A stretch of DNA of 56,182 nucleotides, the filler included, from Limisphaerales bacterium (GTDB lineage Bacteria > Verrucomicrobiota > Verrucomicrobiia > Limisphaerales > SIBE01), in NCBI GenBank assembly GCA_044225505.1. It is 5 parts of 5 records of this genome, joined end to end, with 100 filler letters (N's around TTAATTAATTAA, not from the genome) between each part and the next. Parts side by side here need not be neighbours in the genome. Positions count along the whole stretch, not along the records: positions 11,954 to 23,013 come from JBGAIN010000219.1; 4 more parts are not named here. One strand, written 5' to 3'. Below, piece by piece: positions 11,854 to 45,237 of this stretch. How positions within the stretch are numbered: the stretch's first letter is position 1; every line of letters starts with the position of its first letter. The position numbers and the translations under genes are program-made. The notes beneath the pieces were generated by a model. That model made no database searches. It was given only the letters and a program-made list of their open reading frames with translations, and was not told the DNA's origin.

Positions 11854-11953
11854 NNNNNNNNNNNNNNNNNNNNNNNNNNNNNNNNNNNNNNNNNNNNTTA
11901 ATTAATTAANNNNNNNNNNNNNNNNNNNNNNNNNNNNNNNNNNNNNNNNNNNN
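11854..11953. other. Artificial contig linker
   Basis: N44-TTAATTAATTAA-N44, stop codons in all frames. Confidence 0.98.
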
Positions 11954-11954
11954 G

Positions 11955-13424
11955 CGCACTCCCGACGCAACGATCTACCCGCCCGGAACAGTGGTCGAAC
12001 TCACGGCGTCCCCGGGAAACGCCCGCCCGTTCCTTGGATGGAGCGGCGACCGATCGAGCCCGGAGCATTCCTGGCACGTCACAGTCGATCAACCTCTCCA
12101 TCTCGTCGCCAATTTTCAGATTGTGCCCGGTGATCCCCGATGGGAATTCGTCACCCGCGGTGGCCAGATGAACTCGTCTCCAGCAATCGGTCCCGACGGC
12201 ACGATTTATGTCGGAGCGAACGACGGTGCCATCTATGCCTTAAATCCAATCTCCGGGGCGAAACAATGGGAATTCCTAACGAGCGACAGCGTGATCGCGT
12301 CCCCAACGCTCGGGACGGACGGATTCCTTTACGTCGCCTCGTCAAACGGTCGCGTGTATGCGTTGGACGCAACCAGTGGAACGTTGCGATGGGCCTTTCA
12401 AACCGGAGATACTATTCGTTCTTCTCCCGCCATCGGCCCGGACGGTCTGGTCTATTTCGGATCGCGAGATGAAAAGCTTTACGCTCTGGACGCGAAGACC
12501 GGCCTTGAGAAGTGGGATTTCGGAACGTACGGCGAAGTTTACTCATCTCCGGCCATTGGCGCCGATGGAACAGTCTACTTCGGCTCCTGGGACTATAAGG
12601 TCTACGCGGTGGATCCAAAGTCCGGGGTTAAGAAATGGGAGTTTGAAACAGGTCACCGCATCTTGTCTTCTCCTGCGGTAGGCCGCGATAACACCGTGTA
12701 TATCGGTTCCAACGACCACAAGGTGTATGCTTTGAACGGCGCGACTGGCGCCAAGGAGTGGGAGTTTCTGACTGGCGATGCGGTAACGGCTTCGCCCGTG
12801 GTCAGCGATGACGGAATCGTCTATGTCGGTTCCCAGGACCACAAGTTTTATGCTCTCGACGCCGCCCTGGGCACTCCGAAATGGGTCGTTGAGACAGGCA
12901 GCGCCATTGTCGCTGGAGCTGCTCTCGCGCTCGACGGCACGGTGTATGTGGGGTCTTACGATTCGAAGATTTACGCGCTAGACGCAGCCAGCGGTGAAAC
13001 CAAGTGGATCACGGCCAGCGCCACCGGCGCGATCGCCACTTCCATCGCCCTCGGAAACGATGGAACGATCTATGCCGGGTCTTACTACGGCGTCCTGCAT
13101 GCCTTCCACGGGGCCGCCACCTTGGCGCAGACAGCCTGGCCTAAGTTCCGCGCCGACGTATCGAATACGGGGCGCGCAACCGCTGCGGCTGCTCCTCTCC
13201 CACGAATTGACTCCGCCCGGTTTTCCGCAACCGGCTGCACGCTGCAAGGATCATTCGTTCCCGGCCAGACATGCTTTCTGGAAACGTCCGAGGATTTAAT
13301 CCATTGGACCATCCTGACGACGGTAACGGACTCTCACGGCGTCATGAACTACAACGACAGCCGAGCCGCCGCCCTAACCTGCCGCTTCTATCGACTCCGC
13401 GCGCAGGCTTCCGCCGCTCCATAG
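11955..13424 (+). CDS. PQQ-like beta-propeller repeat protein with InlB-B-like repeat and C-terminal FYR tail domain (5'-truncated)
   Basis: About 8 repeats of SSPAIGxDGTVYxGSxDxKVYALDxxTGxKKWEF; N-terminal YPPGTVVELTA...FLGWSGD; C-terminal LETSEDLIHW...RFYRLR. Confidence 0.85.
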   Translation, partial: RTPDATIYPPGTVVELTASPGNARPFLGWSGDRSSPEHSWHVTVDQPLHLVANFQIVPGDPRWEFVTRGGQMNSSPAIGPDGTIYVGANDGAIYALNPISGAKQWEFLTSDSVIASPTLGTDGFLYVASSNGRVYALDATSGTLRWAFQTGDTIRSSPAIGPDGLVYFGSRDEKLYALDAKTGLEKWDFGTYGEVYSSPAIGADGTVYFGSWDYKVYAVDPKSGVKKWEFETGHRILSSPAVGRDNTVYIGSNDHKVYALNGATGAKEWEFLTGDAVTASPVVSDDGIVYVGSQDHKFYALDAALGTPKWVVETGSAIVAGAALALDGTVYVGSYDSKIYALDAASGETKWITASATGAIATSIALGNDGTIYAGSYYGVLHAFHGAATLAQTAWPKFRADVSNTGRATAAAAPLPRIDSARFSATGCTLQGSFVPGQTCFLETSEDLIHWTILTTVTDSHGVMNYNDSRAAALTCRFYRLRAQASAAP

Positions 13425-13627
13425 CTCATGTCTTGGAGATATTGCTTTGGTCAACGAAGGTGCCGCCAGTCGTTCGAGTTCCAGTGTCTTCCCAAGTCTA
13501 AGCTCGCGCGTTCAAACGAATTCCGCGTTTCCATAATTGCCCAATCCATGATTCAATGACCGTCATTCCGCGTTCCGATGATTACCCAATCCGTTATGTG
13601 GCACTCATCAAACGCCGCACCGCGCGT

Positions 13628-14860
13628 ATGAGAATCTGTTATTTGGCGATTGTCGCTGGACTACTGACGCACAGCCCGACGTGCATCCGCGGAGCTGACG
13701 CCGAGCCTGCCACGGCGGTGGTCGGCGTATCAGCCGTCCCTGCTCTGCTCGCGCCCGAAACCGCAGTCGAACGGTATCGAGCCGAACTGGACAGTTTCCG
13801 GCAAGCGTTCGGAGGCGCGCGCGCACTGCCTGACGAACGGTTCTTTCTTTTCGGAATGGGTTTGCGCGAGAAGCTGGTTTATCAGAAGGGCCTCCTTCAA
13901 AAAGCGCTGTCTGGTGAAGTCATTGGCCGCTGGACCGTGCGCGAGGACTTCATTCTGCCGGCCGATTACACTGTGGTCATTCGGACGGCTGACCATCGCG
14001 ACGTGCGTATTATCGAGGACGAACGCGGCGTGTGGCTGGTGGAGGGAGGCAAGTCGACTCAGGTGCCAGGAACGGAAGGGGCTGTGCATTTGCCGAACTT
14101 CGCTGGACATCGTTTCCCAGCTGTCCTCCGCGTTCTGCACCAGGAACTGCTCATTAACGTAACACCGCACGGTCCCGTACCGAACTTCTTCGTTTATCCC
14201 CGGCCGTGGTATCGCGACGGTGCGATGATGGCGCTGGCGTTTCGCGAAACCGGCAACCTCGGATGCGTTCGCGATTGGATTCTAGGTCTGCGCGAAGCGT
14301 TTGATCGCAACAATGCCGGAGAAACCGAGGCGGACAATCTGGGCCAAGCCCTGTTTCTAGTTTCGCTCGTCTCGGACAAAAACCATCCGCTCGTGCCGCG
14401 AATCCTAACCGAGGCCCCGCGGTTCGAGACCAACGGACCCGCCGGGAAGTTCCTGCAGGGGCGCTCCGACTTCGCTTTTCATCCGGTTTATCAAACCCAA
14501 TGGATGAAGTTCGGCTTGCGAGCGCTGGGATTGTCGGATCCCTATACCGTGCCGCCGTTGCAGGATTCATATGCGGCTCTGTTCTGGATGGAGACCCGGG
14601 ACGCTTACGTGCCTGGCCGCGATGCGAACGATCGCGACCGGTATCCGTACCTGGGTTGGGCCTGTGACCATTTCCACGGCACAAAACAAAGCCCGATCAG
14701 CAACCGCGACTACCCGTTAACTTGGGAAGCGCACGCCAGTCAGGCCCACTACGAGGGCATCGAGCCGTTAAGTGAAACCTACTCGGCGCAAAAGCTGGCC
14801 GCACCCCATACCTGGCACGCCGCGGAAGTGTTCCTCTACCTCTTAAAACCCAATCCATAG
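13628..14860 (+). CDS. Secreted hypothetical protein, possible (alpha/alpha)6 glycoside hydrolase-like
   Basis: Signal peptide; PWYRDGAM, DRNNAGETEADNLGQ, YPLTWE and PHTWHAAE resemble six-hairpin glycosidase motifs; carbohydrate context. Confidence 0.5.
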   Translation: MRICYLAIVAGLLTHSPTCIRGADAEPATAVVGVSAVPALLAPETAVERYRAELDSFRQAFGGARALPDERFFLFGMGLREKLVYQKGLLQKALSGEVIGRWTVREDFILPADYTVVIRTADHRDVRIIEDERGVWLVEGGKSTQVPGTEGAVHLPNFAGHRFPAVLRVLHQELLINVTPHGPVPNFFVYPRPWYRDGAMMALAFRETGNLGCVRDWILGLREAFDRNNAGETEADNLGQALFLVSLVSDKNHPLVPRILTEAPRFETNGPAGKFLQGRSDFAFHPVYQTQWMKFGLRALGLSDPYTVPPLQDSYAALFWMETRDAYVPGRDANDRDRYPYLGWACDHFHGTKQSPISNRDYPLTWEAHASQAHYEGIEPLSETYSAQKLAAPHTWHAAEVFLYLLKPNP

Positions 14861-15101
14861 AAACCTATCTTCGCGAATTCTGTCGGACCAAAAGAATGCA
14901 TTGCACAAATTCCCCAGTCCGCTCTCACTGGAGGCGCTCGGCCGACGCCAGAATTGAACTAACAGATCGAGGTCGCACCTTTCCGTCTATCAAACATTAG
15001 GAAAGTCCGGCCGATCAAACGGTGGAAATGAGAATGCCGTTATGGCCACATCGACACCCAAGGCCTTCGGCGGGGTGATTGCGGAAGAACAGGAATTCCG
15101 A

Positions 15102-16496
15102 ATGATAAAGCGATGGCTTTCGTCCGGGCTGCTTGCCTGGTTGGTGCTGGCCGGAGGCCAGGCCGGATCAACTCCTGCCGCTGGTGAACCGATCGCTGTC
15201 CCGGACGGGTCGACCGGTGCGAAGTCTCCCTCGGAGCGAGTCGCCGAGATGCGGGGATGCGTGGCCTTCTGGGACTTCGTGAAACGGGAAACGGCTGAAC
15301 CCAAGCGGTTCGCGGCCCATGTCCCGATAGGTGCGACGAACGACTTTCCCCTGGATGCGGGAAACTACGTCCAGGATTTCTGGGGCGAAGGGCGGGCCGC
15401 AACCGACCGCGATTTTCCGCAACTTGGCCGTGGGCCATTCGGCAACGCGATTCTCATCCGGAAAGAGACGGACCCGAACTTCCGTCCTTTCCTCTTTGTA
15501 CCCAGGGAACGGCTCCATGACACGCCGCTGGATATCAAGGGAGCCAACAAGTCGGTCACTGTCGTCGTCTGGGCCATCCGCGAGAGCGGAAATCACGCTC
15601 TGGCGGGAATTTGGCATGAGGGGACGGATCTGGACCAAACGGAAGCAGTTAACGTCCGAAGGGTTCAGCGTGGCCAGCGTCAATACGCCCTGTTTGCCGG
15701 ACTGAATATCGAAGGCAGTGCTTGCGGACACGTCTCGGAAACCGGCGCGAGTTCGTTCCTGAACCGGTATGCGTTACACAAGAGCAATTCGGCCGGCGCG
15801 TCGCCTAGAGTACCCGCGGACTCTCCCGACGCGACACTGGATGAGTCGTGGCAGTGTTTTGCCATGACTTTCGATCACCAGCGCCAAGAGCTAACCGGCT
15901 GGCTGAACGGCGTGTCCGGCGACCGATGGCTGGAGAACCCGAAGGCGGACAAACTGATTTCCTCCGCCTACCGGGCCTATATGCAAGGGCACTACGCAGG
16001 GATGCCAAGTGTGCAACCTGGCGAGGACGTGAGCTTCCCGAAGGACCAGTTCTACAATCCGCCCGAGGAAACCCCCGTTTCGACGAAGGTAATTCGCTCG
16101 ACTGACAACGAACGGGTGGAACTCCGTGAGTATCGCTACACGAAAGTGGAAATCACTCTGCGGAGAGGCGACGACAGGCACTTCGCCGAGTCCAACCGCG
16201 ACCTCGTGGGATTGAGACTGAACCCCTGGTGGTACCCACATGGAATCTACAAACCGAAGGACGATGGAAGTGGCGGACCGTTCACCATCGGGCGTGTGAT
16301 TCACACCTCGCGCGGGGTGGGGTTCACGGGCTGGATCGGCGGAGTGGCGGTATTCGACAGGGCTCTCAACGCCGCTGAACTCGCGAATCTTTCGGACTAC
16401 AGCAAGTCGGTGTCAGCAGGAGATGCGGTCTCCACGGCCCAGCAACCGAACCAGGCGCTGCACCTGCGGGCCCCCCAAAGCGGCGCTCGCAGGTGA
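15102..16496 (+). CDS. Secreted LamG/concanavalin-A-like hypothetical protein
   Basis: Signal peptide; VAFWDF, VTVVVW, WQCFAMTFD, FTIG, FTGWIGGVAVFDRALNAAEL. Confidence 0.6.
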   Translation: MIKRWLSSGLLAWLVLAGGQAGSTPAAGEPIAVPDGSTGAKSPSERVAEMRGCVAFWDFVKRETAEPKRFAAHVPIGATNDFPLDAGNYVQDFWGEGRAATDRDFPQLGRGPFGNAILIRKETDPNFRPFLFVPRERLHDTPLDIKGANKSVTVVVWAIRESGNHALAGIWHEGTDLDQTEAVNVRRVQRGQRQYALFAGLNIEGSACGHVSETGASSFLNRYALHKSNSAGASPRVPADSPDATLDESWQCFAMTFDHQRQELTGWLNGVSGDRWLENPKADKLISSAYRAYMQGHYAGMPSVQPGEDVSFPKDQFYNPPEETPVSTKVIRSTDNERVELREYRYTKVEITLRRGDDRHFAESNRDLVGLRLNPWWYPHGIYKPKDDGSGGPFTIGRVIHTSRGVGFTGWIGGVAVFDRALNAAELANLSDYSKSVSAGDAVSTAQQPNQALHLRAPQSGARR

Positions 16497-16511
16497 GCTG
16501 AATCGTTGGGC
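16445..16511 (+). mobile_element. Solitary attC-like integron recombination site
   Basis: R'' ACCGAAC (16445-51); arm GCT-G-CACCTGCG pairing with CGCAGGTGAGC (one extrahelical base); R' GTTGGGC (16505-11); 67 bp. Confidence 0.7.
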
Positions 16512-16548
16512 AACAAGAAACGCGCTTTACCACCAACGGCAACTTTTT

Positions 16549-16821
16549 TCACAAATCGGCGACTCGCTCCCGAAAGGCATAGTGCGACGTCTGAATCTGT
16601 CGGCCCAGGTCCGCGCTGTTAATGATGTTGCCGGGATGCTCCTTGCTGGAGATCAACGTCACCGCCCCTCCCAGGGCCAGGTCCATACCAATCCGGACCT
16701 CCCCGTTGTCCAGATACGTCATGTTCGGCTCTGGCATTGACGAGGCGCCGTAGACGGCAACGCGGACACTCACGAGCAAGCCGGCCGTCAGCCGTGCTCG
16801 ATACCGGGGGCTGGTGCGCAT
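16549..16821 (-). pseudogene. Probably truncated secreted protein, last gene of the GH29 operon
   Basis: ATG 16 bp after GH29 stop; signal peptide, then YLDNGEVRIGMDLALGGAV...NIINSADLGRQIQTSHY, ending abruptly near the attC-like site. Confidence 0.55.
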
Positions 16822-16837
16822 ACGAGCAAGCTGGATT

Positions 16838-18454
16838 TCAGGAACGGATCTCCAGAGCCAAAGCGGTCTTGGCCTTGAACCCCTCCGGCAGGACAACCTG
16901 CACGCCTGCGGCATCGCGGGTGAACTTGAGTTTACCGCCCCCCACCAAACGGACGCTGCCGATCTTGCCCGGCCAGTATGGGGACTGGGTCCCCAGCGAG
17001 CTCACCCTGATTTGGCCATCCTTCGGAATCTCCAGCACGATCGCGTAAAGCGTCTTGCCATCTTTCGATTGCGTGAAGCGGATGTCCTCCGCGGTGAACG
17101 GGGCTTTTTCCACGTCTGTCTGCCCGGCGAACTGGCCCTTCTCGTGGCGCGCGGTAGACGGTCCCTCGCCGTAGACCTTCCAGGGACGCGTGGCGTAGAT
17201 CGCCTTGCCGTTGATCTTCATCCACGCGCCGATTTCATTGATGATCGCAATCTCGTCGGAGTCAGGTTGTCCGTCGCCCCGGAGCGGCACGTTCAGCATG
17301 AGATTGCCATTCTTGCTGACAATGTCGGCGAGCATGCGAATCACCGACGGGGCAGACTTGTATCGGTGGTTAGTGAAAACGTCCCGGTCGTAATGCCACT
17401 CGCCGATGCAGGTGTCGGTCTGCCAGGGCTGCGGCATGATTCCCTCTGCTTTGCCCCGCTCGAAGTCCCAAACCAGGGCCTGGCGCTGCATTTCGTTGAG
17501 CATTTTGCCGTTCACCACCGCTTCCGTGCGACCGTGCTTGTCCAGGCGCGAGTTGTAGGCATGCGCGGCGAGCTTCAGTCCCACTTCATCCGTGACGCCG
17601 ACGAACGGAAGCACCGTGTCGTCGAAGTAGATCTGGTCTGGCCGGTAGTCATCCCAGAGCTGTTTGGTGCGCTTGAAGAACTTCTCCATGTAAGCGGCGT
17701 CGGGCACGCTGCTGCCTTTGCTGGCGTCCCAGGACCACTCCAGGGTTGTTCCGGGCTTATGGTTTTGAGCGTAAAGATCCTGCGGGTCCAGCCCCTCCCA
17801 CCATTGGCCTTTGCCGTCGGCTTTGGTCAGCTTGCCGTCGTAGGGTACCCCGGCAAACGGACCTTCCTTGTCCGCCCCCTGGGCTGGCTCATACCATGAC
17901 CACGGGCGCGAACCATGCACGCTCACGGCAAAGCGCAGACCGTGCTTGCGCGCCGCCCTGGCCCAACCGCCGATCAGGTCCTTTTGGGGCCCGAGCGCGA
18001 CGGAGTTCCACGGCTGGTACTTGGAGTTCCAGTTATCGAAGTTGTCGTGGTGGTTGGCCAGGGCCATGAAATACTTCGCGCCGTTGTCCTTGTAGAATTT
18101 GAGCAGTTTGTCGGGATCGAAGTGCTCCGCTTTCCAGACGTGGATGACGTCCTTAAAGCCGTTGGTCGAGGGATGGCCGTATTCAACGACGTGGGACTTG
18201 TAGTTGCGGCTGCCAGTCTCGTACATGCTACGCGCGTACCAATCCCCATGCTCAGGCTGGCATTGGGATCCCCAGTGCGCCCAGATGCCGAACTTGGCAT
18301 CGCGGAACCACTCGGGCGTTTGGTAGCTCGTGAGCGAATTCCAGTCCGGCTTGAATGGGCCGTCGGTGATGGGCGGGAGTTGGAGGGGCGTGGTCTGCGC
18401 CGCCGCCGCGGAAAAGCAAGCGGTCAGGAGCATGAAGGAGGTCATTTTCTTCAT
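16838..18454 (-). CDS. GH29 alpha-L-fucosidase-family glycosidase, secreted
   Basis: PEWFRDAKFGIWAHWG, HHDNF, IYFDD (nucleophile), WQTD, DIVSKNGNLMLNV, W..NG.AIY.TRPW. Confidence 0.92.
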   Translation of the reverse strand: MKKMTSFMLLTACFSAAAAQTTPLQLPPITDGPFKPDWNSLTSYQTPEWFRDAKFGIWAHWGSQCQPEHGDWYARSMYETGSRNYKSHVVEYGHPSTNGFKDVIHVWKAEHFDPDKLLKFYKDNGAKYFMALANHHDNFDNWNSKYQPWNSVALGPQKDLIGGWARAARKHGLRFAVSVHGSRPWSWYEPAQGADKEGPFAGVPYDGKLTKADGKGQWWEGLDPQDLYAQNHKPGTTLEWSWDASKGSSVPDAAYMEKFFKRTKQLWDDYRPDQIYFDDTVLPFVGVTDEVGLKLAAHAYNSRLDKHGRTEAVVNGKMLNEMQRQALVWDFERGKAEGIMPQPWQTDTCIGEWHYDRDVFTNHRYKSAPSVIRMLADIVSKNGNLMLNVPLRGDGQPDSDEIAIINEIGAWMKINGKAIYATRPWKVYGEGPSTARHEKGQFAGQTDVEKAPFTAEDIRFTQSKDGKTLYAIVLEIPKDGQIRVSSLGTQSPYWPGKIGSVRLVGGGKLKFTRDAAGVQVVLPEGFKAKTALALEIRS

Positions 18455-18549
18455 AGTGTTTGCATCGACTTCGGGAGCCTTGGGTATCTTTTTTTCTGTG
18501 AGCGTGAGTTATGAACTATTACTTTGCACGCTCGAAGTGAGGCGCAGAA

Positions 18550-19365
18550 TTAGAATCCTCGAAGCTCGGTACTGCTCCGTTTTGGCAGGCCGGGCGCCGG
18601 CGTGCGTTTGAGCACGAGGTATTCAATGCCGAGTTGCCGGCAATATTCTCTCTTGCCTCCCTTGTCGCCGTCTTCGTTGACAACGTAGATGTGAGGTTTT
18701 AGCCGGCGGATTTCCGGATCGGCATCCATCCACCCGGAACCGGAAGCAATGAGCGCCTGCTTCACGTATTTGATCGAGCCCACCACGTAACGGCGTTCCT
18801 CCTGCGACAAGAGTGGATGGCCTTCACCCTTGAGCAGGCGCACATTCGCGTCGCTGCCGACGCAGACGTATAGATCTCCGTAAGCCGCCGCTTCTTCGGT
18901 GAAGCGCACGTGGCCGGAATGAAACCAGTCATAGCAGCCGGTGGCGATCACTCGTTTCTTTCCGGGAGCAGAGGGCATGGGGGGCGGTTCAGGAAAGCCC
19001 GTCAAGTCAGACTCCGTGAAGACGCGGTACTCGATGTTCCTTTCCTCGCAGAATTTCCTCCGTGCTGGATTGGCCGAGGAATCCATGTCCGCCCAGATTC
19101 GCGAGCACACTCCCGGAATCTCCGGGAGTGCATTCAGGTTGGCCAGGTCTCCCAGCGAGACGACGCGGCTGACAGTGCGGACCGCGCCAAGGAAGTAGCT
19201 GCGCTCCGCCAGAGAGAACCTGGGCGGTCTGCCCGTCGTCTGGCGAATGGCAGTATCCGGCCAAAGCAGGACCGTCAGCTCGCCCAGCTTAGCGGCTTCT
19301 TCAAAGAAACGCAGATCGCGCGATTTGAGGTCGTCAAAGCTGCCGGAAACGATGACAGAGGTCAT
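18550..19365 (-). CDS. Tandem cytidylyltransferase-like (HxGH) nucleotidyltransferase; domain 1 degenerate, domain 2 intact
   Basis: Domain 1 VSGSFDDLKSRD; domain 2 ATGCYDWFHSGH...GSD...ERR...RSST; ATGA overlap with upstream kinase stop. Confidence 0.85.
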   Translation of the reverse strand: MTSVIVSGSFDDLKSRDLRFFEEAAKLGELTVLLWPDTAIRQTTGRPPRFSLAERSYFLGAVRTVSRVVSLGDLANLNALPEIPGVCSRIWADMDSSANPARRKFCEERNIEYRVFTESDLTGFPEPPPMPSAPGKKRVIATGCYDWFHSGHVRFTEEAAAYGDLYVCVGSDANVRLLKGEGHPLLSQEERRYVVGSIKYVKQALIASGSGWMDADPEIRRLKPHIYVVNEDGDKGGKREYCRQLGIEYLVLKRTPAPGLPKRSSTELRGF

Positions 19366-20177
19366 AGCCTGTGTGGCTGGTTCTTCTGTCGGGTCGTGCG
19401 CACGGTCACGTGAAGCGCCCCTGGCACGGGCTTCTCCGAAGCGACGATGAGGTAACCGCCGCCACAACCGGAATACATCGCGCCGGGGTATTGCCTTTGA
19501 TAGGCCTTGAGAATTGGCTTCAAGTCCAGGCGGAGAGCCGGATGACGAAGGATCTGGGGCAGCAACGTTTCCCAGCACTTCATGTTCAGGTCAAACGACG
19601 CGCCCAGTTGTTCAACGTCCATCGCCCGGATGGCGTCGAAACAATCCTTGCCGGATTGCCCGAGTCTGGCCACCCACTCAGGTTTCAGGTTCTTCACCCC
19701 CAGGGGGGAATAGCCGTCCGGGCGCGGTTCGATTGGAATAAGGTGCAGCACTTGGCTCAACCACTGTGCGACGCGCCGCGAGTTGCACGACTCGATATGC
19801 GATGGGAACACGCCGCCGTGGATTTTGAAATCGTAGTCGAGCCGGTTCACGCCTGGGTAAACCAGGCCGATCATGTCCTGCGAACCGCTCGGCTCCTTCT
19901 TCCCTTCGTTCTCGGCGGTGTATAACTCGCGCACCAACTCGTCCGGCGGACGGTTAGGCAGTCTACCCCGCCACAATTTCATCGCCACCTGGCGCGTGCC
20001 GCTCGCGATGCCGCTCCGGTCCATCGGCCGGAAATCCGGTTCGATCTGGACCACGACCATGGAGCCGGGCGGACTGGGATTATGCCTGGATACGAACGGC
20101 TGGTCGATCCAACCGCCCGCGAGCTGCAGCCGGTTTGGAATGGCGCCCAGGAGCTTTGATACCGGGGAGACTTTCAT
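19362..20177 (-). CDS. GHMP-family sugar kinase (fucokinase/HddA-like)
   Basis: PNRLQLAGGWIDQP (cf. fucokinase PVRIDLAGGWxD), RSGIASGT, SGSQD, SGCGGGY. Confidence 0.75.
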   Translation of the reverse strand: MKVSPVSKLLGAIPNRLQLAGGWIDQPFVSRHNPSPPGSMVVVQIEPDFRPMDRSGIASGTRQVAMKLWRGRLPNRPPDELVRELYTAENEGKKEPSGSQDMIGLVYPGVNRLDYDFKIHGGVFPSHIESCNSRRVAQWLSQVLHLIPIEPRPDGYSPLGVKNLKPEWVARLGQSGKDCFDAIRAMDVEQLGASFDLNMKCWETLLPQILRHPALRLDLKPILKAYQRQYPGAMYSGCGGGYLIVASEKPVPGALHVTVRTTRQKNQPHRL

Positions 20178-20210
20178 CGCAGGTCGCAAGAGGCAGGTGA
20201 TCGCTGTTGT

Positions 20211-21257
20211 CTAGCCAATGCCCACACGCTGGCCAGCGGCGCGCTTCTTGTGCTGCTCGTAAATCCAATGGAATGTCTCCTTCAGACCCTTATCCAGCGG
20301 CGTGCTCGGCTCCCATTTGAGCACCTTCTTAATGAAGGTGTTGTCCGAGTTGCGACCCGCGACGCCTTGCGGCGCATGCAAATCGTACTTGCGATTCATC
20401 GTCACGCCCGCGATGGCCTCGATTTTGGTCAAGAGCGTGTTGATGGAGACCATTTCGCTGGAGCCGAGATTGATCGGGGTGGCGATCAATTCGTCCGAGT
20501 GCATGATCTTGTCGATGCCCCGCACACAGTCATCGATATACATAAAGCTGCGGGTCTGGTGGCCGTTACCCCAAATGGTGATGTCTTTCTTGCCCAGCTC
20601 AATGGCTTCGATGACTTTACGGCAAAGCGCGGCGGGGGCCTTTTCCCGACCGCCGTCCCAAGTGCCATGCGGGCCATAAACATTATGGAATCGAGCAATG
20701 GCGGTCTTCATACCGCGTTCATGCCAGTATTCTTCGCAGAACTGTTCCGAGATCAGCTTTTCCCAGCCATAGCCGCGCTCGGCCATGGCTGGATAGGCGT
20801 CGGATTCCTTCAACGCGCGCACGTTCGGGTCTTTTTGGAGCAGCGTGTTGTAAGCGCAGGCTGAGCTCGAAAAGAAATAGCGGCGTGCTCCTGCGCGGTA
20901 AGCCGCTTCAATCATGTTTGTATTGATGAGAATTGAGCGCAGACACTCGACCCGAAAGCGTTCGATAAAACCCATCCCGCCCATATCCGCGGCCAGATTA
21001 TAGACCTCCACGGCGCTTTCGCAGGCGCGTTTGCAGTTGGCGTCGGTGCTCACGTCGAGGCAGAGGTTCTGAACTCCCGGAACGTGCAAGTACCACTCGT
21101 AAAGCGGCTTCTTGTCGACCGCGCGGATGTTGGTGAAGCCCTTCTTCTTGAAGTAGAGGGCGAGGTTGCCGGCAATGAAACCGCCGGCGCCCGTGATGAC
21201 GATGAGATCGTCTTTCTTCAGCTGCGGGTCCTTTACCACTGCTCGTCGCTGTTCCAT
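20211..21257 (-). CDS. GDP-mannose 3,5-epimerase-like extended SDR
   Basis: TGAGGFIA, NLAADMGGMGFI, SSACAY, YGWEK, RFHNVYGPHGTWDGGREKAPAALCRK, QTRSF, GRNSDNT. Confidence 0.88.
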   Translation of the reverse strand: MEQRRAVVKDPQLKKDDLIVITGAGGFIAGNLALYFKKKGFTNIRAVDKKPLYEWYLHVPGVQNLCLDVSTDANCKRACESAVEVYNLAADMGGMGFIERFRVECLRSILINTNMIEAAYRAGARRYFFSSSACAYNTLLQKDPNVRALKESDAYPAMAERGYGWEKLISEQFCEEYWHERGMKTAIARFHNVYGPHGTWDGGREKAPAALCRKVIEAIELGKKDITIWGNGHQTRSFMYIDDCVRGIDKIMHSDELIATPINLGSSEMVSINTLLTKIEAIAGVTMNRKYDLHAPQGVAGRNSDNTFIKKVLKWEPSTPLDKGLKETFHWIYEQHKKRAAGQRVGIG

Positions 21258-21394
21258 GGGTATATCTTGCTTTGGCCTGTTCTTTTCGCTGTTAAAAGGG
21301 AGCGGCTGCTCCGAGTTCCGCCTACAGCATTGTATTTCTCCGGGAATTCGGGAATATCCATCATTGACCGCTGCATATCCGTGGTTGTCTTTTT

Positions 21395-22300
21395 ATGGAA
21401 AACTCTCGTGCGAGCACCCCGGCCAACCCCGACTTCTTCTCAACGCAAATTCTGCAGGCGCGACGTTTCTTTCTGAATCTGAATCCCCGACCAGGCAACT
21501 CCCTTACGGTCGCCTGCGGCGGTATGGAGCACTGCGACCCGAACTATGCTATCCAACGAAGCTCATTCCCGTTTTGCTCCATCGAATTCGTGGCGCGGGG
21601 CCTTGGGCGTTTAAGTCTGGGGGCCAAAGAACATCGCCTCCACCCCGGAAGTGTGTTCTCATACGGGCCGGGCGTGCCCCACGAGATCTCCACCGATCCA
21701 CAGCAACCGCTGATCAAATACTTTGTAGACTTCGCCGGTTCCGGCGCCAGCGCGTTGCTGAATTCGTCTGGGCTTCGCGCTGGTTCGGTGGGTCAGGTCT
21801 TTCCCCCCACGGAGATTCAACCGCTCTTCGATGAATTGATTCGCAATGGGCTGCGCGGCAGCCGCCAGTCCCCTCGGATCTGCGCGATTCTGCTAGATGC
21901 GTTGGCGCACAAGATAGCTGAGGCGCGTGCACCCCGGTCCGGCCGCGAAACGCTTGCGTTCGGGACGTACCAGCGATGCCGAGATCATATCGCCCGTCAT
22001 TTCCAGCGACTTCGGTCGGTGGAACAGATCGCTCGGGAATGCCACCTCAACAATGCCTACCTATGCCGGTTGTTTAAGCGCTACGACGAAGGCACGGCTT
22101 ACAGTTATCTCCTGCGCATAAAGATGAATTACGCCGCCGAGCGGCTGCAGAGCCCCGCTGCGCTCGTCAAACAAGTCGCCGAAGAAACCGGATTTGCCAA
22201 TCAATTTCACTTCTCGCGCACCTTCAAAACTACCTTTGGCATCTCGCCAAGTGCGATGAGTAGAATGCGTGGATCGCAAGCCTTCCCACGCAGCGCATAG
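21395..22300 (+). CDS. AraC family transcriptional regulator, divergent from the GME operon
   Basis: Cupin sensor domain (FSYGPGVPH); C-terminal YLCRLFK...VKQVAEETGFANQFHFSRTFKTTFGISP. Confidence 0.92.
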   Translation: MENSRASTPANPDFFSTQILQARRFFLNLNPRPGNSLTVACGGMEHCDPNYAIQRSSFPFCSIEFVARGLGRLSLGAKEHRLHPGSVFSYGPGVPHEISTDPQQPLIKYFVDFAGSGASALLNSSGLRAGSVGQVFPPTEIQPLFDELIRNGLRGSRQSPRICAILLDALAHKIAEARAPRSGRETLAFGTYQRCRDHIARHFQRLRSVEQIARECHLNNAYLCRLFKRYDEGTAYSYLLRIKMNYAAERLQSPAALVKQVAEETGFANQFHFSRTFKTTFGISPSAMSRMRGSQAFPRSA

Positions 22301-22526
22301 CCCTTTACTGCGATGCGATCAGCGTAATGAAGCGATGGGCTGTTTCGACGCGCTAATTCCCCTGCTGTGGAATATCGCTGCGCCCAATCGACCCGCGGCG
22401 CCTGACTTGACAGGCCGGAGTGCCCTTTGGCAGTGTCCCGTCATGCTCGGTATGTCCCCAAAACCAAGTCTGCCTTACCCGAGCAACGCTGATCGTTCGC
22501 CGTGCTCAAACAGCCATTTCCTAATC

Positions 22527-23013
22527 ATGAAAATGCGTCGCAGAGACTTTCTCGGGCTCGTCCCCGCCGTTCTCGCTGCAGTTGCGTCCGTGGGTGAAAC
22601 GCCGCGTCGCAACCCGTTCCCGCGCTGGCGCGGTTTCAATCTTCCGGGCGCGCCCGACCAGATTCCCGAAGACGACTTTCGCATGATCCAGGACCTCGGT
22701 TTCGACTGGGTGCGGTTGCCCGAGTCCTACTGGAACCTGGTCGATTCGGACGCGACTCGGAAGGGACGCATTGAACTGGCTGACGTGCGCAAAGTGAAAG
22801 AAAGCGCGCTGGCTCACATAGACCGCCTGATCGACTGGGGACGCAAGTACTCCATCCACGTGAACCTGGCCTTGCACCGCGCGCCCGGGTTTTGTATTGC
22901 CGATTACAATCCGGGCCGAAGCCCCAGCGAACCATTCAATCTCTGGAAAGACCCGGCGGCAGAGGACGCCTTCGTCTTTTACTGGGAGATGTTCGCGCGC
23001 CGCTACCAGGGTG
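22527..23013 (+). CDS. GH5-family glycoside hydrolase with Tat signal (3'-truncated)
   Basis: MKMRRRDFLG; WRGFNL, LGFDWVRLP, IHVNLALHRAPG, WEMFARRY. Confidence 0.8.
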
Positions 23014-23113
23014 NNNNNNNNNNNNNNNNNNNNNNNNNNNNNNNNNNNNNNNNNNNNTTAATTAATTAANNNNNNNNNNNNNNNNNNNNNNNNNNNNNNN
23101 NNNNNNNNNNNNN
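23014..23113. other. Artificial contig linker
   Basis: N44-TTAATTAATTAA-N44. Confidence 0.98.
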
Positions 23114-34073: not shown

Positions 34074-34173
34074 NNNNNNNNNNNNNNNNNNNNNNNNNNN
34101 NNNNNNNNNNNNNNNNNTTAATTAATTAANNNNNNNNNNNNNNNNNNNNNNNNNNNNNNNNNNNNNNNNNNNN
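34074..34173. other. Artificial contig linker
   Basis: N44-TTAATTAATTAA-N44. Confidence 0.98.
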
Positions 34174-45137: not shown

Positions 45138-45237
45138 NNNNNNNNNNNNNNNNNNNNNNNNNNNNNNNNNNNNNNNNNNNNTTAATTAATTAANNNNNNN
45201 NNNNNNNNNNNNNNNNNNNNNNNNNNNNNNNNNNNNN
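45138..45237. other. Artificial contig linker
   Basis: N44-TTAATTAATTAA-N44. Confidence 0.98.

Follow-up and report, generated by a model that had tools for sequence, protein, structure and literature searches.

A gene cassette that encodes a GDP-mannose 3,5-epimerase and probably feeds L-galactose into mannose metabolism

L-Galactose is a capping sugar of plant pectin and of certain xylans and xyloglucans, and red-algal galactans are built in part from it. A literature search on its catabolism in bacteria found only oxidative routes in print, namely those of Bacteroides vulgatus (BVU_0219/0222) and of Luteolibacter sp. LG18 (lgu genes), the latter being a verrucomicrobium as well (PMC12632266). 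FKP-type fucokinase takes L-galactose as a substrate (PMC11982464). The 3,5-epimerase of GDP-mannose (GME) has an equilibrium which favours GDP-mannose, and in bacteria it has been linked so far to lipopolysaccharide (LPS) or antibiotic synthesis, according to PMC6678494 and PMC8787198; the characterised bacterial enzyme is slow, with a kcat of 0.2 per second (PMC8787198). Here, a set of genes is described which probably feeds L-galactose into mannose metabolism by an undescribed route.

Locus and encoded proteins

The window analyzed is a stretch of 56,182 nucleotides from a sludge bacterium, composed of five contigs joined by N spacers, with the cassette located on an 11,060-nt contig (window 11954-23013). 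The ORF listing and a reading of the minus strand confirmed the observation of the first-pass annotation that four genes are co-oriented on that strand, with an AraC gene diverging from them. These encode a GME of 348 amino acids (20211..21257), a minimal GHMP-fold sugar kinase-like protein of 271 amino acids (19362..20177, with its ATG at 20177), a tandem HxGH nucleotidyltransferase of the cytidylyltransferase fold, also of 271 amino acids (18550..19365), and a GH29 glycosidase of 538 amino acids (16838..18454). The ATGA overlap noted earlier is real, the ATG of the transferase (19365-19363) sharing bases with the TGA of the kinase (19364-19362). A contig 7,296 nt long, assembled independently from a run that belongs to a different study, matches window 14873-22168 with 22 differing letters, so that the gene order is not an assembly artefact. 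The lack of a glycosyltransferase on the contig had also been remarked upon, but with a contig of just 11 kb this carries little weight as an argument. Neither a FucP-type permease, FucU nor an exit enzyme was found on this contig; FucP was not found in this genome, and its sole FucU sits elsewhere (contig C131). A GH5-like gene (22269..23013, plus strand; Pfam Cellulase, E 3.6e-5) is truncated by the contig end at 23013, and GH5-like genes also adjoin the cassette in two other loci (L041 and L085).

In a PDB sequence search, the epimerase matched the solved plant GMEs with E values of 5e-77 (8sg0) and 1e-75 (2c59), with the next family, GDP-fucose synthase, at 5e-23. The motifs SSAC, YGWEK, GGREK and GRNSD, described as intact in the first-pass annotation, are all present in the translation. 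In an alignment with 2c59, the first three fall on its Cys, Tyr/Lys and Lys motifs, and all plant-GME catalytic motifs are kept. The roles ascribed to these residues, those of a Cys/Lys acid/base pair and a Tyr-x3-Lys motif, follow PMC6678494 in part. From its full-length similarity and catalytic motifs, the protein is predicted to be a GDP-mannose 3,5-epimerase of the extended SDR type.

Sequence searches of Pfam, NCBIfam and the PDB at E values as high as 10 gave no match for the kinase-like protein, which belongs to a family with at least 7,572 homologues. Its predicted structure (pLDDT 93.9) has the GHMP two-domain, anomeric sugar-kinase fold. With Foldseek, 98 matches in the PDB had an E value of 0.001 or lower, and the listed top ones were all GHMP enzymes (TMq 0.40-0.66), with the anomeric sugar kinases WcbL (4usk), heptose kinase (3k85), galactokinase (1s4e) and FKP fucokinase (9iip, TMq 0.66) leading. 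The earlier description of a fucokinase-like GHMP kinase is thus backed by the model as regards the GHMP fold, but not by any family match in sequence. The canonical GHMP phosphate-binding motif II is Pro-x-Gly-Ser-Gly-Leu-Gly-Ser-Ser (PxGSGLGSS). It is altered in this family, with a conserved SGSQD-x-x-G at the phosphate-loop position before the helix, while the Gly-rich motif III is kept, as SG(C/A)GGGY near the C-terminus. Among the relatives, only distant ones that carry fusions (P0146, P0166, P0181 and P0213) matched the GHMP_kinases_C model. It is on its modelled fold that the protein may be placed in the GHMP superfamily, as a putative sugar kinase with a minimal version of that fold and a member of an uncatalogued family.

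The transferase contains a PF01467 domain (E 1.5e-11, residues 140-232). Its N-terminal half is without HxGH and its C-terminal half carries HSGH, which is invariant in 34 aligned homologues. The best NCBIfam match was rfaE_dom_II, at an E value of 4e-20 that is under the family cut-off. The model (pLDDT 93) resembles human ECT (3elb) across the whole protein (TMq 0.74), with HldC (5xf2, 28% identity over one domain) as the best single-domain match and TagD also similar. To our knowledge, characterized HxGH-fold transferases use CTP or ATP, and the use of GTP would be a first; we infer it here only from the GME partner, the adjacency of ManC and a GMD-kinase fusion.

Such folds could also suggest a nucleotide-heptose or other ADP-/CDP-linked sugar pathway, in which the GHMP kinase would be heptokinase-like, the adenylyltransferase HldC-like and the epimerase HldD-like. 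The heptokinases 4usk and 3k85 being the best Foldseek matches of the kinase model would fit with this, as would the best matches of the transferase in NCBIfam (rfaE domain II) and among single-domain structures (HldC). However, the epimerase matches GME far better (E 5e-77) than it does TIGR02197, the heptose epimerase family of NCBIfam (E 7.6e-14), no GmhA- or GmhB-type gene was found among the annotated neighbours of related cassettes, and the partners seen are FucP, FucU, GH29, GH95, ManC and PMI. A pathway of this kind is hence regarded as very improbable.

Members of GH29 and GH95 are mostly fucosidases. The GH29 protein of the cassette matches Pfam Alpha_L_fucos (PF01120, E 3e-83) together with Fucosidase_C, and the solved chains closest to it are 7ljj/7lnp, which are of an exo-alpha-L-galactosidase from B. 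plebeius (E about 1e-75), and 7snk. Its nucleophile Asp lines up with the residue that has been changed from Asp to Asn in chain 7lnp. Asp327 of the B. plebeius enzyme (BpGH29), which hydrogen-bonds O6 of L-galactose (PMC9774334), aligns with an Asp inside a WQTDT stretch. The protein is a candidate alpha-L-galactosidase/fucosidase. A hydrophobic N-terminus, read by eye, is the sole basis for calling it secreted.

The regulator (301 amino acids, 21395..22300, plus strand) has the C-terminal double HTH of the AraC family (HTH_18, HTH_AraC) and an N-terminal cupin sugar-binding domain (AraC_binding). The 137 bp between the start codons of GME and AraC (21258..21394) are presumed to hold both promoters plus an operator; a consensus scan of this region detected no promoter-like site.

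Conservation and context of the cassette

Related genome loci numbered at least 548, and gene neighbourhoods were surveyed in the best 80, which come from several phyla. These 80 are the closest relatives of the query and so a biased sample, and ORF calling was crude. GME lies directly upstream of the kinase on the same strand in 60 of the 74 loci with flank, and the transferase lies downstream of the kinase in 66 of 77. AraC homologues diverge from GME in 27 of the 69 loci with sufficient flank. GH29 occurs in 19 and GH95 in three of the 80 loci, a FucU mutarotase in 14 (mostly immediately 3′ of the transferase) and a FucP-like permease in 12, with three of the four permeases scanned exceeding the NCBIfam fucP cut-off; at least one of these four partners is present in 33 loci. 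ManC was found in eight loci, seven times just 3′ of the transferase, and PMI in two: PMI then ManC in L086, and a PGM/PMM-family gene then PMI, after the kinase, in L072. An arabinose/fucose-isomerase-like gene adjoins the cassette in L058. Transferase-kinase fusions are common among the homologues, and other fusions seen involve an L-rhamnose-mutarotase-family domain (P0130) or GDP-mannose 4,6-dehydratase (P0213).

Scanning of 267 immediate neighbours (265 by Pfam and two by NCBIfam) gave, by our own tally, 30 glycoside hydrolases, polysaccharide lyase and carbohydrate esterases (BD-FAE, GH10, GH43, GH51, GH95, GH2, GH28, melibiases and others), in addition to one PMT_2 and one YfhO. The cassettes are accompanied by AraC or LacI sugar-sensing regulators and by hemicellulases. 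None of the 267 was a GT1, GT2, GT4, WecG or Bac_transf (priming transferase) gene. No GalT-type hexose-1-phosphate uridylyltransferase (HIT family) was found in the cassette, the one HIT-domain gene, beside L023, being assigned by NCBIfam as an ATP adenylyltransferase. This survey, a check which the first-pass annotation had proposed, favours its reading of L-galactose salvage, and that interpretation stands as supported.

The cassette is patchy among relatives, occurring in eight of 41 related genomes. The GME linked to it, here termed class A, was present in seven of seven relatives with an intact kinase (69-100% identical) and in none of 33 without the kinase. Kinase-less relatives instead contain a class B GME, 55-59% identical, and in 10 of the 11 loci examined this GME has glycosyltransferases, exosortase or priming transferases next to it. 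A quick tree sets the two classes apart (SH-aLRT of 97 for the class A branch). Embedding in LPS or capsule loci, named in advance as speaking against L-galactose salvage, was therefore seen only for a different GME subfamily, that of the kinase-less relatives.

These contexts bear on the possibility that the cassette supplies GDP-L-galactose, or GDP-L-fucose, for glycans that the cell itself makes. Salvage by the kinase and transferase would then act on L-galactose or L-fucose as in Bacteroides FKP and ManC and GME would form a de novo arm, both converging on GDP-L-galactose for a glycosyltransferase encoded elsewhere. The LPS and antibiotic roles of known bacterial GMEs, as given in PMC8787198 and PMC6678494, are in line with this. 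So too are the fusions of distant kinase-family members to GT2 or DXD glycosyltransferase domains (P0140 and P0155) and, in L020, a distant transferase-kinase pair in a glycosyltransferase-rich locus next to a class B GME. The adjacency of ManC and PMI is compatible with either direction, and ManC, PMI and GME fit an arm making GDP-L-galactose de novo equally well. On the other hand, GT1, GT2, GT4, WecG and priming transferase genes are missing from all 267 immediate neighbours in the class A setting, whereas 10 of the 11 class B loci have such genes. Class A cassettes instead occur together with AraC or LacI sugar-sensing regulators and hemicellulases, and their spread is patchy, so that a supply role is considered unlikely.

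A different substrate should also be considered, namely L-fucose or another L-fucose-shaped sugar (e.g., D-arabinose), the GDP-sugar of which would be converted by the GME-like enzyme to a product other than GDP-mannose, such as GDP-6-deoxy-D-mannose, for a fate not yet recognized. The prevalence of fucosidases in GH29 and GH95, the permeases above the fucP cut-off and the presence of FucU all agree with L-fucose. FucI was not found in this genome with the query used, and a fucose route is thus not otherwise evident, while FKP prefers L-fucose approximately 100-fold over L-galactose (PMC11982464). Yet 3,5-epimerized GDP-L-fucose would yield a 6-deoxy sugar which, on chemical grounds, would be barred from phosphomannomutase and PMI, whereas ManC and PMI recur as exit genes. 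The plant-GME catalytic motifs are moreover all kept, and the isomerase-like gene of L058 hints at a separate fucose route there. We consider L-fucose use of this kind quite improbable.

Proposed pathway

The support for L-galactose as the substrate is all comparative. The analysis shows which genes are present, what folds they encode, that synteny and partners are conserved, and that GME falls into two classes by context; the substrate, nucleotide, direction and regulation are what we infer. We lean, with modest confidence, towards an inducible operon that uses L-galactose, or a closely similar L-fucose-shaped hexose, via GDP-sugars in the order L-galactose, L-galactose-1-phosphate, GDP-L-galactose, GDP-mannose and mannose-1-phosphate. 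Outside the cytoplasm, the GH29 enzyme would cleave terminal alpha-L-galactose off glycans of plants or algae, and the sugar would then be imported, the FucP-type permease and FucU mutarotase serving in related loci. The GHMP-fold kinase would phosphorylate it at C1, and the tandem HxGH transferase would convert the sugar-1-phosphate and GTP to GDP-L-galactose and PPi. GME would run toward its favoured side, giving GDP-D-mannose, from which mannose-1-phosphate guanylyltransferase in reverse would regenerate GTP and release mannose-1-phosphate, to enter glycolysis through phosphomannomutase and phosphomannose isomerase. AraC is expected to activate the operon in response to the sugar. Set against this are the counts of GH29 (only 19 of 80 cassettes) and AraC (only 27 of 69), a permease model that is named for L-fucose, the altered phosphate loop of the kinase, the low kcat of the characterised bacterial GME, and the missing FucP in this genome.

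In its widest form, this proposal amounts to a third, non-oxidative, Leloir-like and GDP-linked L-galactose route with GME running backwards, common to hundreds of soil, freshwater and sludge bacteria of several phyla, involving a new minimal GHMP kinase family and the first GTP-using HxGH sugar-1-phosphate transferase, with PPi and GTP recycled via ManC. We judge the case for this to be evenly balanced. If true, this nucleotide-sugar route would be a new point at which carbon from plants and algae enters central metabolism. Bacterial GME would also gain a physiological role beyond glycan synthesis, a very large family of proteins without a Pfam model would receive a function, and the enzymes could serve to produce GDP-L-galactose and similar nucleotides of rare L-sugars. 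As carriers of the cassette exist in culture, among them Rhizomicrobium electricum DSM 21034 and Limisphaera sp. VF-2, the idea is directly testable.

Comparison with known systems

The nucleotide-heptose pathways (HddA/WcbL kinase, HldC adenylyltransferase and HldD epimerase) share the same three folds and the same reaction order with the cassette. They differ in that the epimerase here is GME and not HldD, no isomerase or phosphatase gene is present, and the neighbours are transport and hydrolase genes of the fucose/galactose type. The oxidative routes of B. vulgatus and LG18 share the presumed nutrient. They begin with a dehydrogenase and proceed via L-galactonate and D-tagaturonate, with no C1 kinase and no nucleotide sugar, and GDP is not mentioned in PMC12632266.

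The GMEs of plants (2c59) and Methylacidiphilum fumariolicum belong to the same family as the cassette GME and have the same catalytic motifs. Their known roles are biosynthetic (ascorbate, cell wall and LPS), whereas the cassette GME forms a separate clade with catabolic-type neighbours and a proposed flow to GDP-mannose.

The Leloir pathway, in its pyrophosphorylase (Isselbacher) form, shows the same logic of a mutarotase, an anomeric GHMP kinase, a nucleotide sugar and an SDR epimerase leading back to a common hexose phosphate. Here, however, the sugar would be an L-sugar, the carrier GDP instead of UDP, and the epimerization a double one at C3 and C5 instead of at C4; no GalT-type exchange enzyme was seen, and no enzyme is orthologous to its Leloir counterpart.

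FKP likewise combines a GHMP-fold anomeric kinase with subsequent nucleotide activation of an L-fucose-shaped sugar, its kinase part being the one matched by the kinase model. Unlike FKP, the cassette has kinase and transferase as two genes (fused in other species), the kinase is approximately 100 residues shorter with a non-canonical phosphate loop, and the transferase has the HxGH cytidylyltransferase fold (PF01467) in place of the NTP_transferase fold. The cassette also differs in having GME attached, which would link the product to GDP-mannose, and in its degradative context under apparent AraC control.

Layout of the operon

The candidate operon was located on contig C336 (11,060 nt; window 11954-23013) of a metagenome-assembled genome of 9.0 Mb in 342 contigs, with a completeness of 95% and a contamination of 4.7%. 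The window consists of separate contigs (C332, C336, C338, C339 and C340) whose junctions, at 11854-11953, 23014-23113, 34074-34173 and 45138-45237, are N runs flanking a 12-letter spacer, and genes of different segments do not neighbour one another. Four genes are encoded on the minus strand, beginning with that for a GDP-mannose 3,5-epimerase, here called GME (20211-21257), followed by a kinase-like gene (19362-20177, 271 aa), a nucleotidyltransferase gene (18550-19365, 271 aa) whose start overlaps the kinase stop (ATGA), and a GH29 gene (16838-18454). An AraC gene (21395-22300) lies divergently at 137 bp from GME, with a GH5-like gene after it that is truncated by the contig end. A 7,296-nt contig belonging to another study's run spans 14873-22168 with 22 letters differing, and therefore reproduces the gene order independently. 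The arrangement described in the first-pass annotation, namely the four co-oriented genes, the ATGA overlap and the divergent AraC, was borne out. The runs holding most of this stretch of the window were labelled as bioreactor, activated sludge and wastewater metagenomes, with no RNA run among those listed. A scan of 16400-21500 for promoter and terminator consensus sequences gave counts not above those of shuffled sequences, with no site in the AraC-GME spacer.

Two large ORFs without a clear family lie upstream of GH29 (13556-14860 and 15042-16496), one having no Pfam match and the other a weak match to Laminin_G_3 (E 2e-4); these may encode further glycan-binding or glycan-degrading proteins. 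It should also be noted that two letters at window 13576, just within the start of the 434-aa ORF 13556-14860, are absent from contigs of three other runs, and this start may be misassembled in the window or strain-variable.

Proteins encoded by the operon

Judged by its sequence, the GME of the window is a true GDP-mannose 3,5-epimerase, matching solved plant enzymes with E values of 5e-77 and 1e-75 (next family 5e-23) and aligning with them at the Cys, Tyr/Lys and Lys motifs. The nearest solved relatives of the GH29 protein are chains of the Bacteroides plebeius exo-alpha-L-galactosidase (E about 1e-75). The nucleophile Asp and the equivalent of Asp327 are kept, with Glu80 replaced by Asp; Asp327 is reported to fix O6 of L-galactose (PMC9774334, from which the residue roles are taken).

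For the kinase-like protein, searches of Pfam (to an E of 10), NCBIfam and the PDB sequences (phmmer) gave nothing useful. A structure model built from 33 sequences (pLDDT 93.9) has a GHMP fold, and its best structural matches were all anomeric sugar kinases, namely the heptokinase WcbL, a Bacteroides heptose kinase, galactokinases and the kinase part of the bifunctional Bacteroides enzyme FKP (TMq 0.66). The Gly-rich C-terminal motif is retained in the family, and a conserved SGSQD stretch stands in place of the usual phosphate loop. The family comprises at least 7,572 clusters in a 90% identity collection and 898 representatives at 50% identity, with homologues in at least 548 species genomes. 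In more distant relatives the kinase is found fused to the transferase. Other partners are also joined to the kinase domain: both an L-rhamnose-mutarotase-family domain and the transferase in P0130, GT2 in P0140, a DXD glycosyltransferase in P0155, a PNP_UDP phosphorylase together with the transferase in P0166, and GDP-mannose 4,6-dehydratase in P0213.

The transferase has a tandem cytidylyltransferase fold, with human ECT matching the entire protein (TMq 0.74). Its C-terminal half bears HSGH and matches HldC at 28% identity, as well as TagD, and the N-terminal half lacks HxGH. A heptose-pathway reading of the cassette was considered and set aside.

Conservation and surroundings of the cassette

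The cassette of GME, kinase-like and transferase genes was surveyed by tblastn in the best 80 of at least 548 genome loci. These are labelled Verrucomicrobiota, Planctomycetota, Acidobacteriota, Pseudomonadota and Spirochaetota, with some doubtful bin labels such as Bifidobacteriaceae, and include the isolates Rhizomicrobium electricum DSM 21034 and Limisphaera sp. VF-2. Among these best 80 loci, GME was directly upstream on the same strand in 60 of the 74 with flank, the transferase downstream in 66/77 and a divergent AraC homologue present in 27/69. Partner genes within the same 80 were GH29 (19), FucU (14, Pfam confirming two examples), a FucP-like permease (12), the BD-FAE esterase (9), ManC (8) and GH95 (3). 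Three of the four FucP-like permeases scanned exceeded the NCBIfam fucP cut-off. A GH95 alpha-L-galactosidase is reported to act on corn xylan, and FucP of E. coli to transport L-galactose. ManC was directly 3' of the transferase at seven of its eight loci, one locus (L086) has the order transferase, PMI, ManC, and another (L072) the order GME, kinase, PGM/PMM-family gene, PMI.

The main rival explanation, regarded as rather unlikely, is an operon supplying GDP-L-galactose or GDP-L-fucose for the cell's own glycans. ManC, PMI and GME would also fit a de novo arm making GDP-L-galactose. Bearing on this are the neighbours of the cassette, for which two ORFs of 150 aa or longer were taken to either side of each cassette (267 in total; 265 scanned by Pfam, 2 by NCBIfam). 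By our tally, 30 of the 267 were glycoside hydrolases, a lyase or carbohydrate esterases; PMT_2 and YfhO each occurred once, and GT1, GT2, GT4, WecG and priming sugar transferases were not found among them.

As a control, GME was searched for in the same 41 relatives as the kinase. All seven genomes with an intact kinase carried the cassette-linked subfamily (class A, 69-100% identical to that of the window), which was found in none of the 33 kinase-less genomes. A second subfamily (class B, 55-59% identical) was found in 11 kinase-less genomes and in one genome having both classes. Genes for glycosyltransferases, exosortase EpsH or a priming transferase lay no more than 6 kb away at 10 of the 11 class B loci examined, and at 8 of the 11 there was one within two ORFs. 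The windows here were somewhat wider than those for class A, whose loci were found via the kinase so that the samples are not symmetrical. A quick maximum-likelihood tree, with its outgroup on a long branch, split 67 class A sequences (all phyla) from the 11 of class B (SH-aLRT 97, branch length 1.07). From this comparison, the GME of glycan building sits among glycosyltransferases, whereas this is never so for the GME of the cassette.

The class B loci (L106, L108-L115 and L020) hold exosortase (EpsH)/DUF3485 with WecG, GT1, GT2, priming transferase, DegT and radical-SAM genes, and probably represent an exopolysaccharide system containing L-galactose or L-gulose. One of them (L020:9263-10402, G023:C3) is a glycosyltransferase-rich locus where, near the class B GME, a single-domain HxGH transferase is followed by a distant kinase (38% identical); this pair may be a biosynthetic salvage form ancestral to the catabolic cassette. 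One Verrucomicrobia locus (L058:11134-12570, minus strand) has an arabinose/fucose-isomerase-like gene placed between GH29 and FucP of the cassette, which hints at a separate L-fucose isomerase route beside it. In Pirellulaceae (L090 and L100, about 12804-13757 in L100; L093:3972-4850), ManC comes after the cassette together with an additional NAD-dependent epimerase/reductase (GalE/RmlD-like SDR), past which are a gene matching NCBIfam PRK13663 and then a glycoside-3-dehydrogenase-like GFO gene.

Elsewhere in the window's own genome, FucP and FucI were not found with NCBIfam models (95% completeness), and the single FucU is on contig C131 with unrelated neighbours. On contig C242 (L102:7294-8337), another class A GME (74% identical) stands alone between TerC and a TRAP transporter, and contig C63 (L013:9799-11432) has a further kinase-transferase pair (72% and 61% identical), which precedes a GFO/IDH/MocA oxidoreductase and a HEAT/3-keto-disaccharide-hydrolase protein. 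These could represent one second system in two pieces or second-strain DNA in the bin. A same-genus genome (63% complete) contains a decayed cassette (L008/L021; G001:C59, about 17368-18146), with three stops (2 TGA, 1 TAG) in the kinase match and only fragmentary matches in the GME region.

Proposed route and known L-galactose pathways

Read together, the partner genes of the surveyed loci suggest a series of steps from import to mannose phosphates. The sugar would be imported and mutarotated, phosphorylated at C1 and activated with a nucleotide, then 3,5-epimerised and returned via mannose phosphates. On the sequence evidence, the operon is somewhat more probably than otherwise a system for GDP-linked, Leloir-like L-galactose utilisation. 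The first-pass annotation had proposed such a salvage with GME run in reverse, and this interpretation is supported by the comparative evidence of the conserved cassette, its partner genes and the class A versus class B contexts. L-galactose is favoured over L-fucose because GDP-L-fucose would give a 6-deoxy product unable to pass phosphomannomutase and PMI.

Regarding direction, one study gives about 15 g/L GDP-L-galactose and 5 g/L GDP-L-gulose from 100 g/L GDP-mannose with GME, the equilibrium favouring GDP-mannose (PMC6678494), and a review terms the equilibrium unfavourable in the forward direction and describes the turnover of characterised GMEs as slow (PMC8787198). This slow turnover and the altered kinase loop are weak points of the L-galactose reading, as is the GTP use it would presuppose for an HxGH-fold transferase. 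Uncharacterised enzyme families would make up part of the pathway, and cultured carriers exist for testing.

No description of a bacterial kinase-plus-nucleotide-sugar route for L-galactose was found in open-access papers and bioRxiv. An oxidative L-galactose pathway has reportedly been described in B. vulgatus. The roles given for bacterial GME in the 2022 review are LPS and antibiotics (PMC8787198). FKP phosphorylates L-galactose and yields GDP-L-galactose, with an affinity about 100-fold weaker than for fucose (PMC11982464). In Luteolibacter LG18 the L-galactose route is oxidative, and the term GDP is absent from the 2025 paper on it (PMC12632266).
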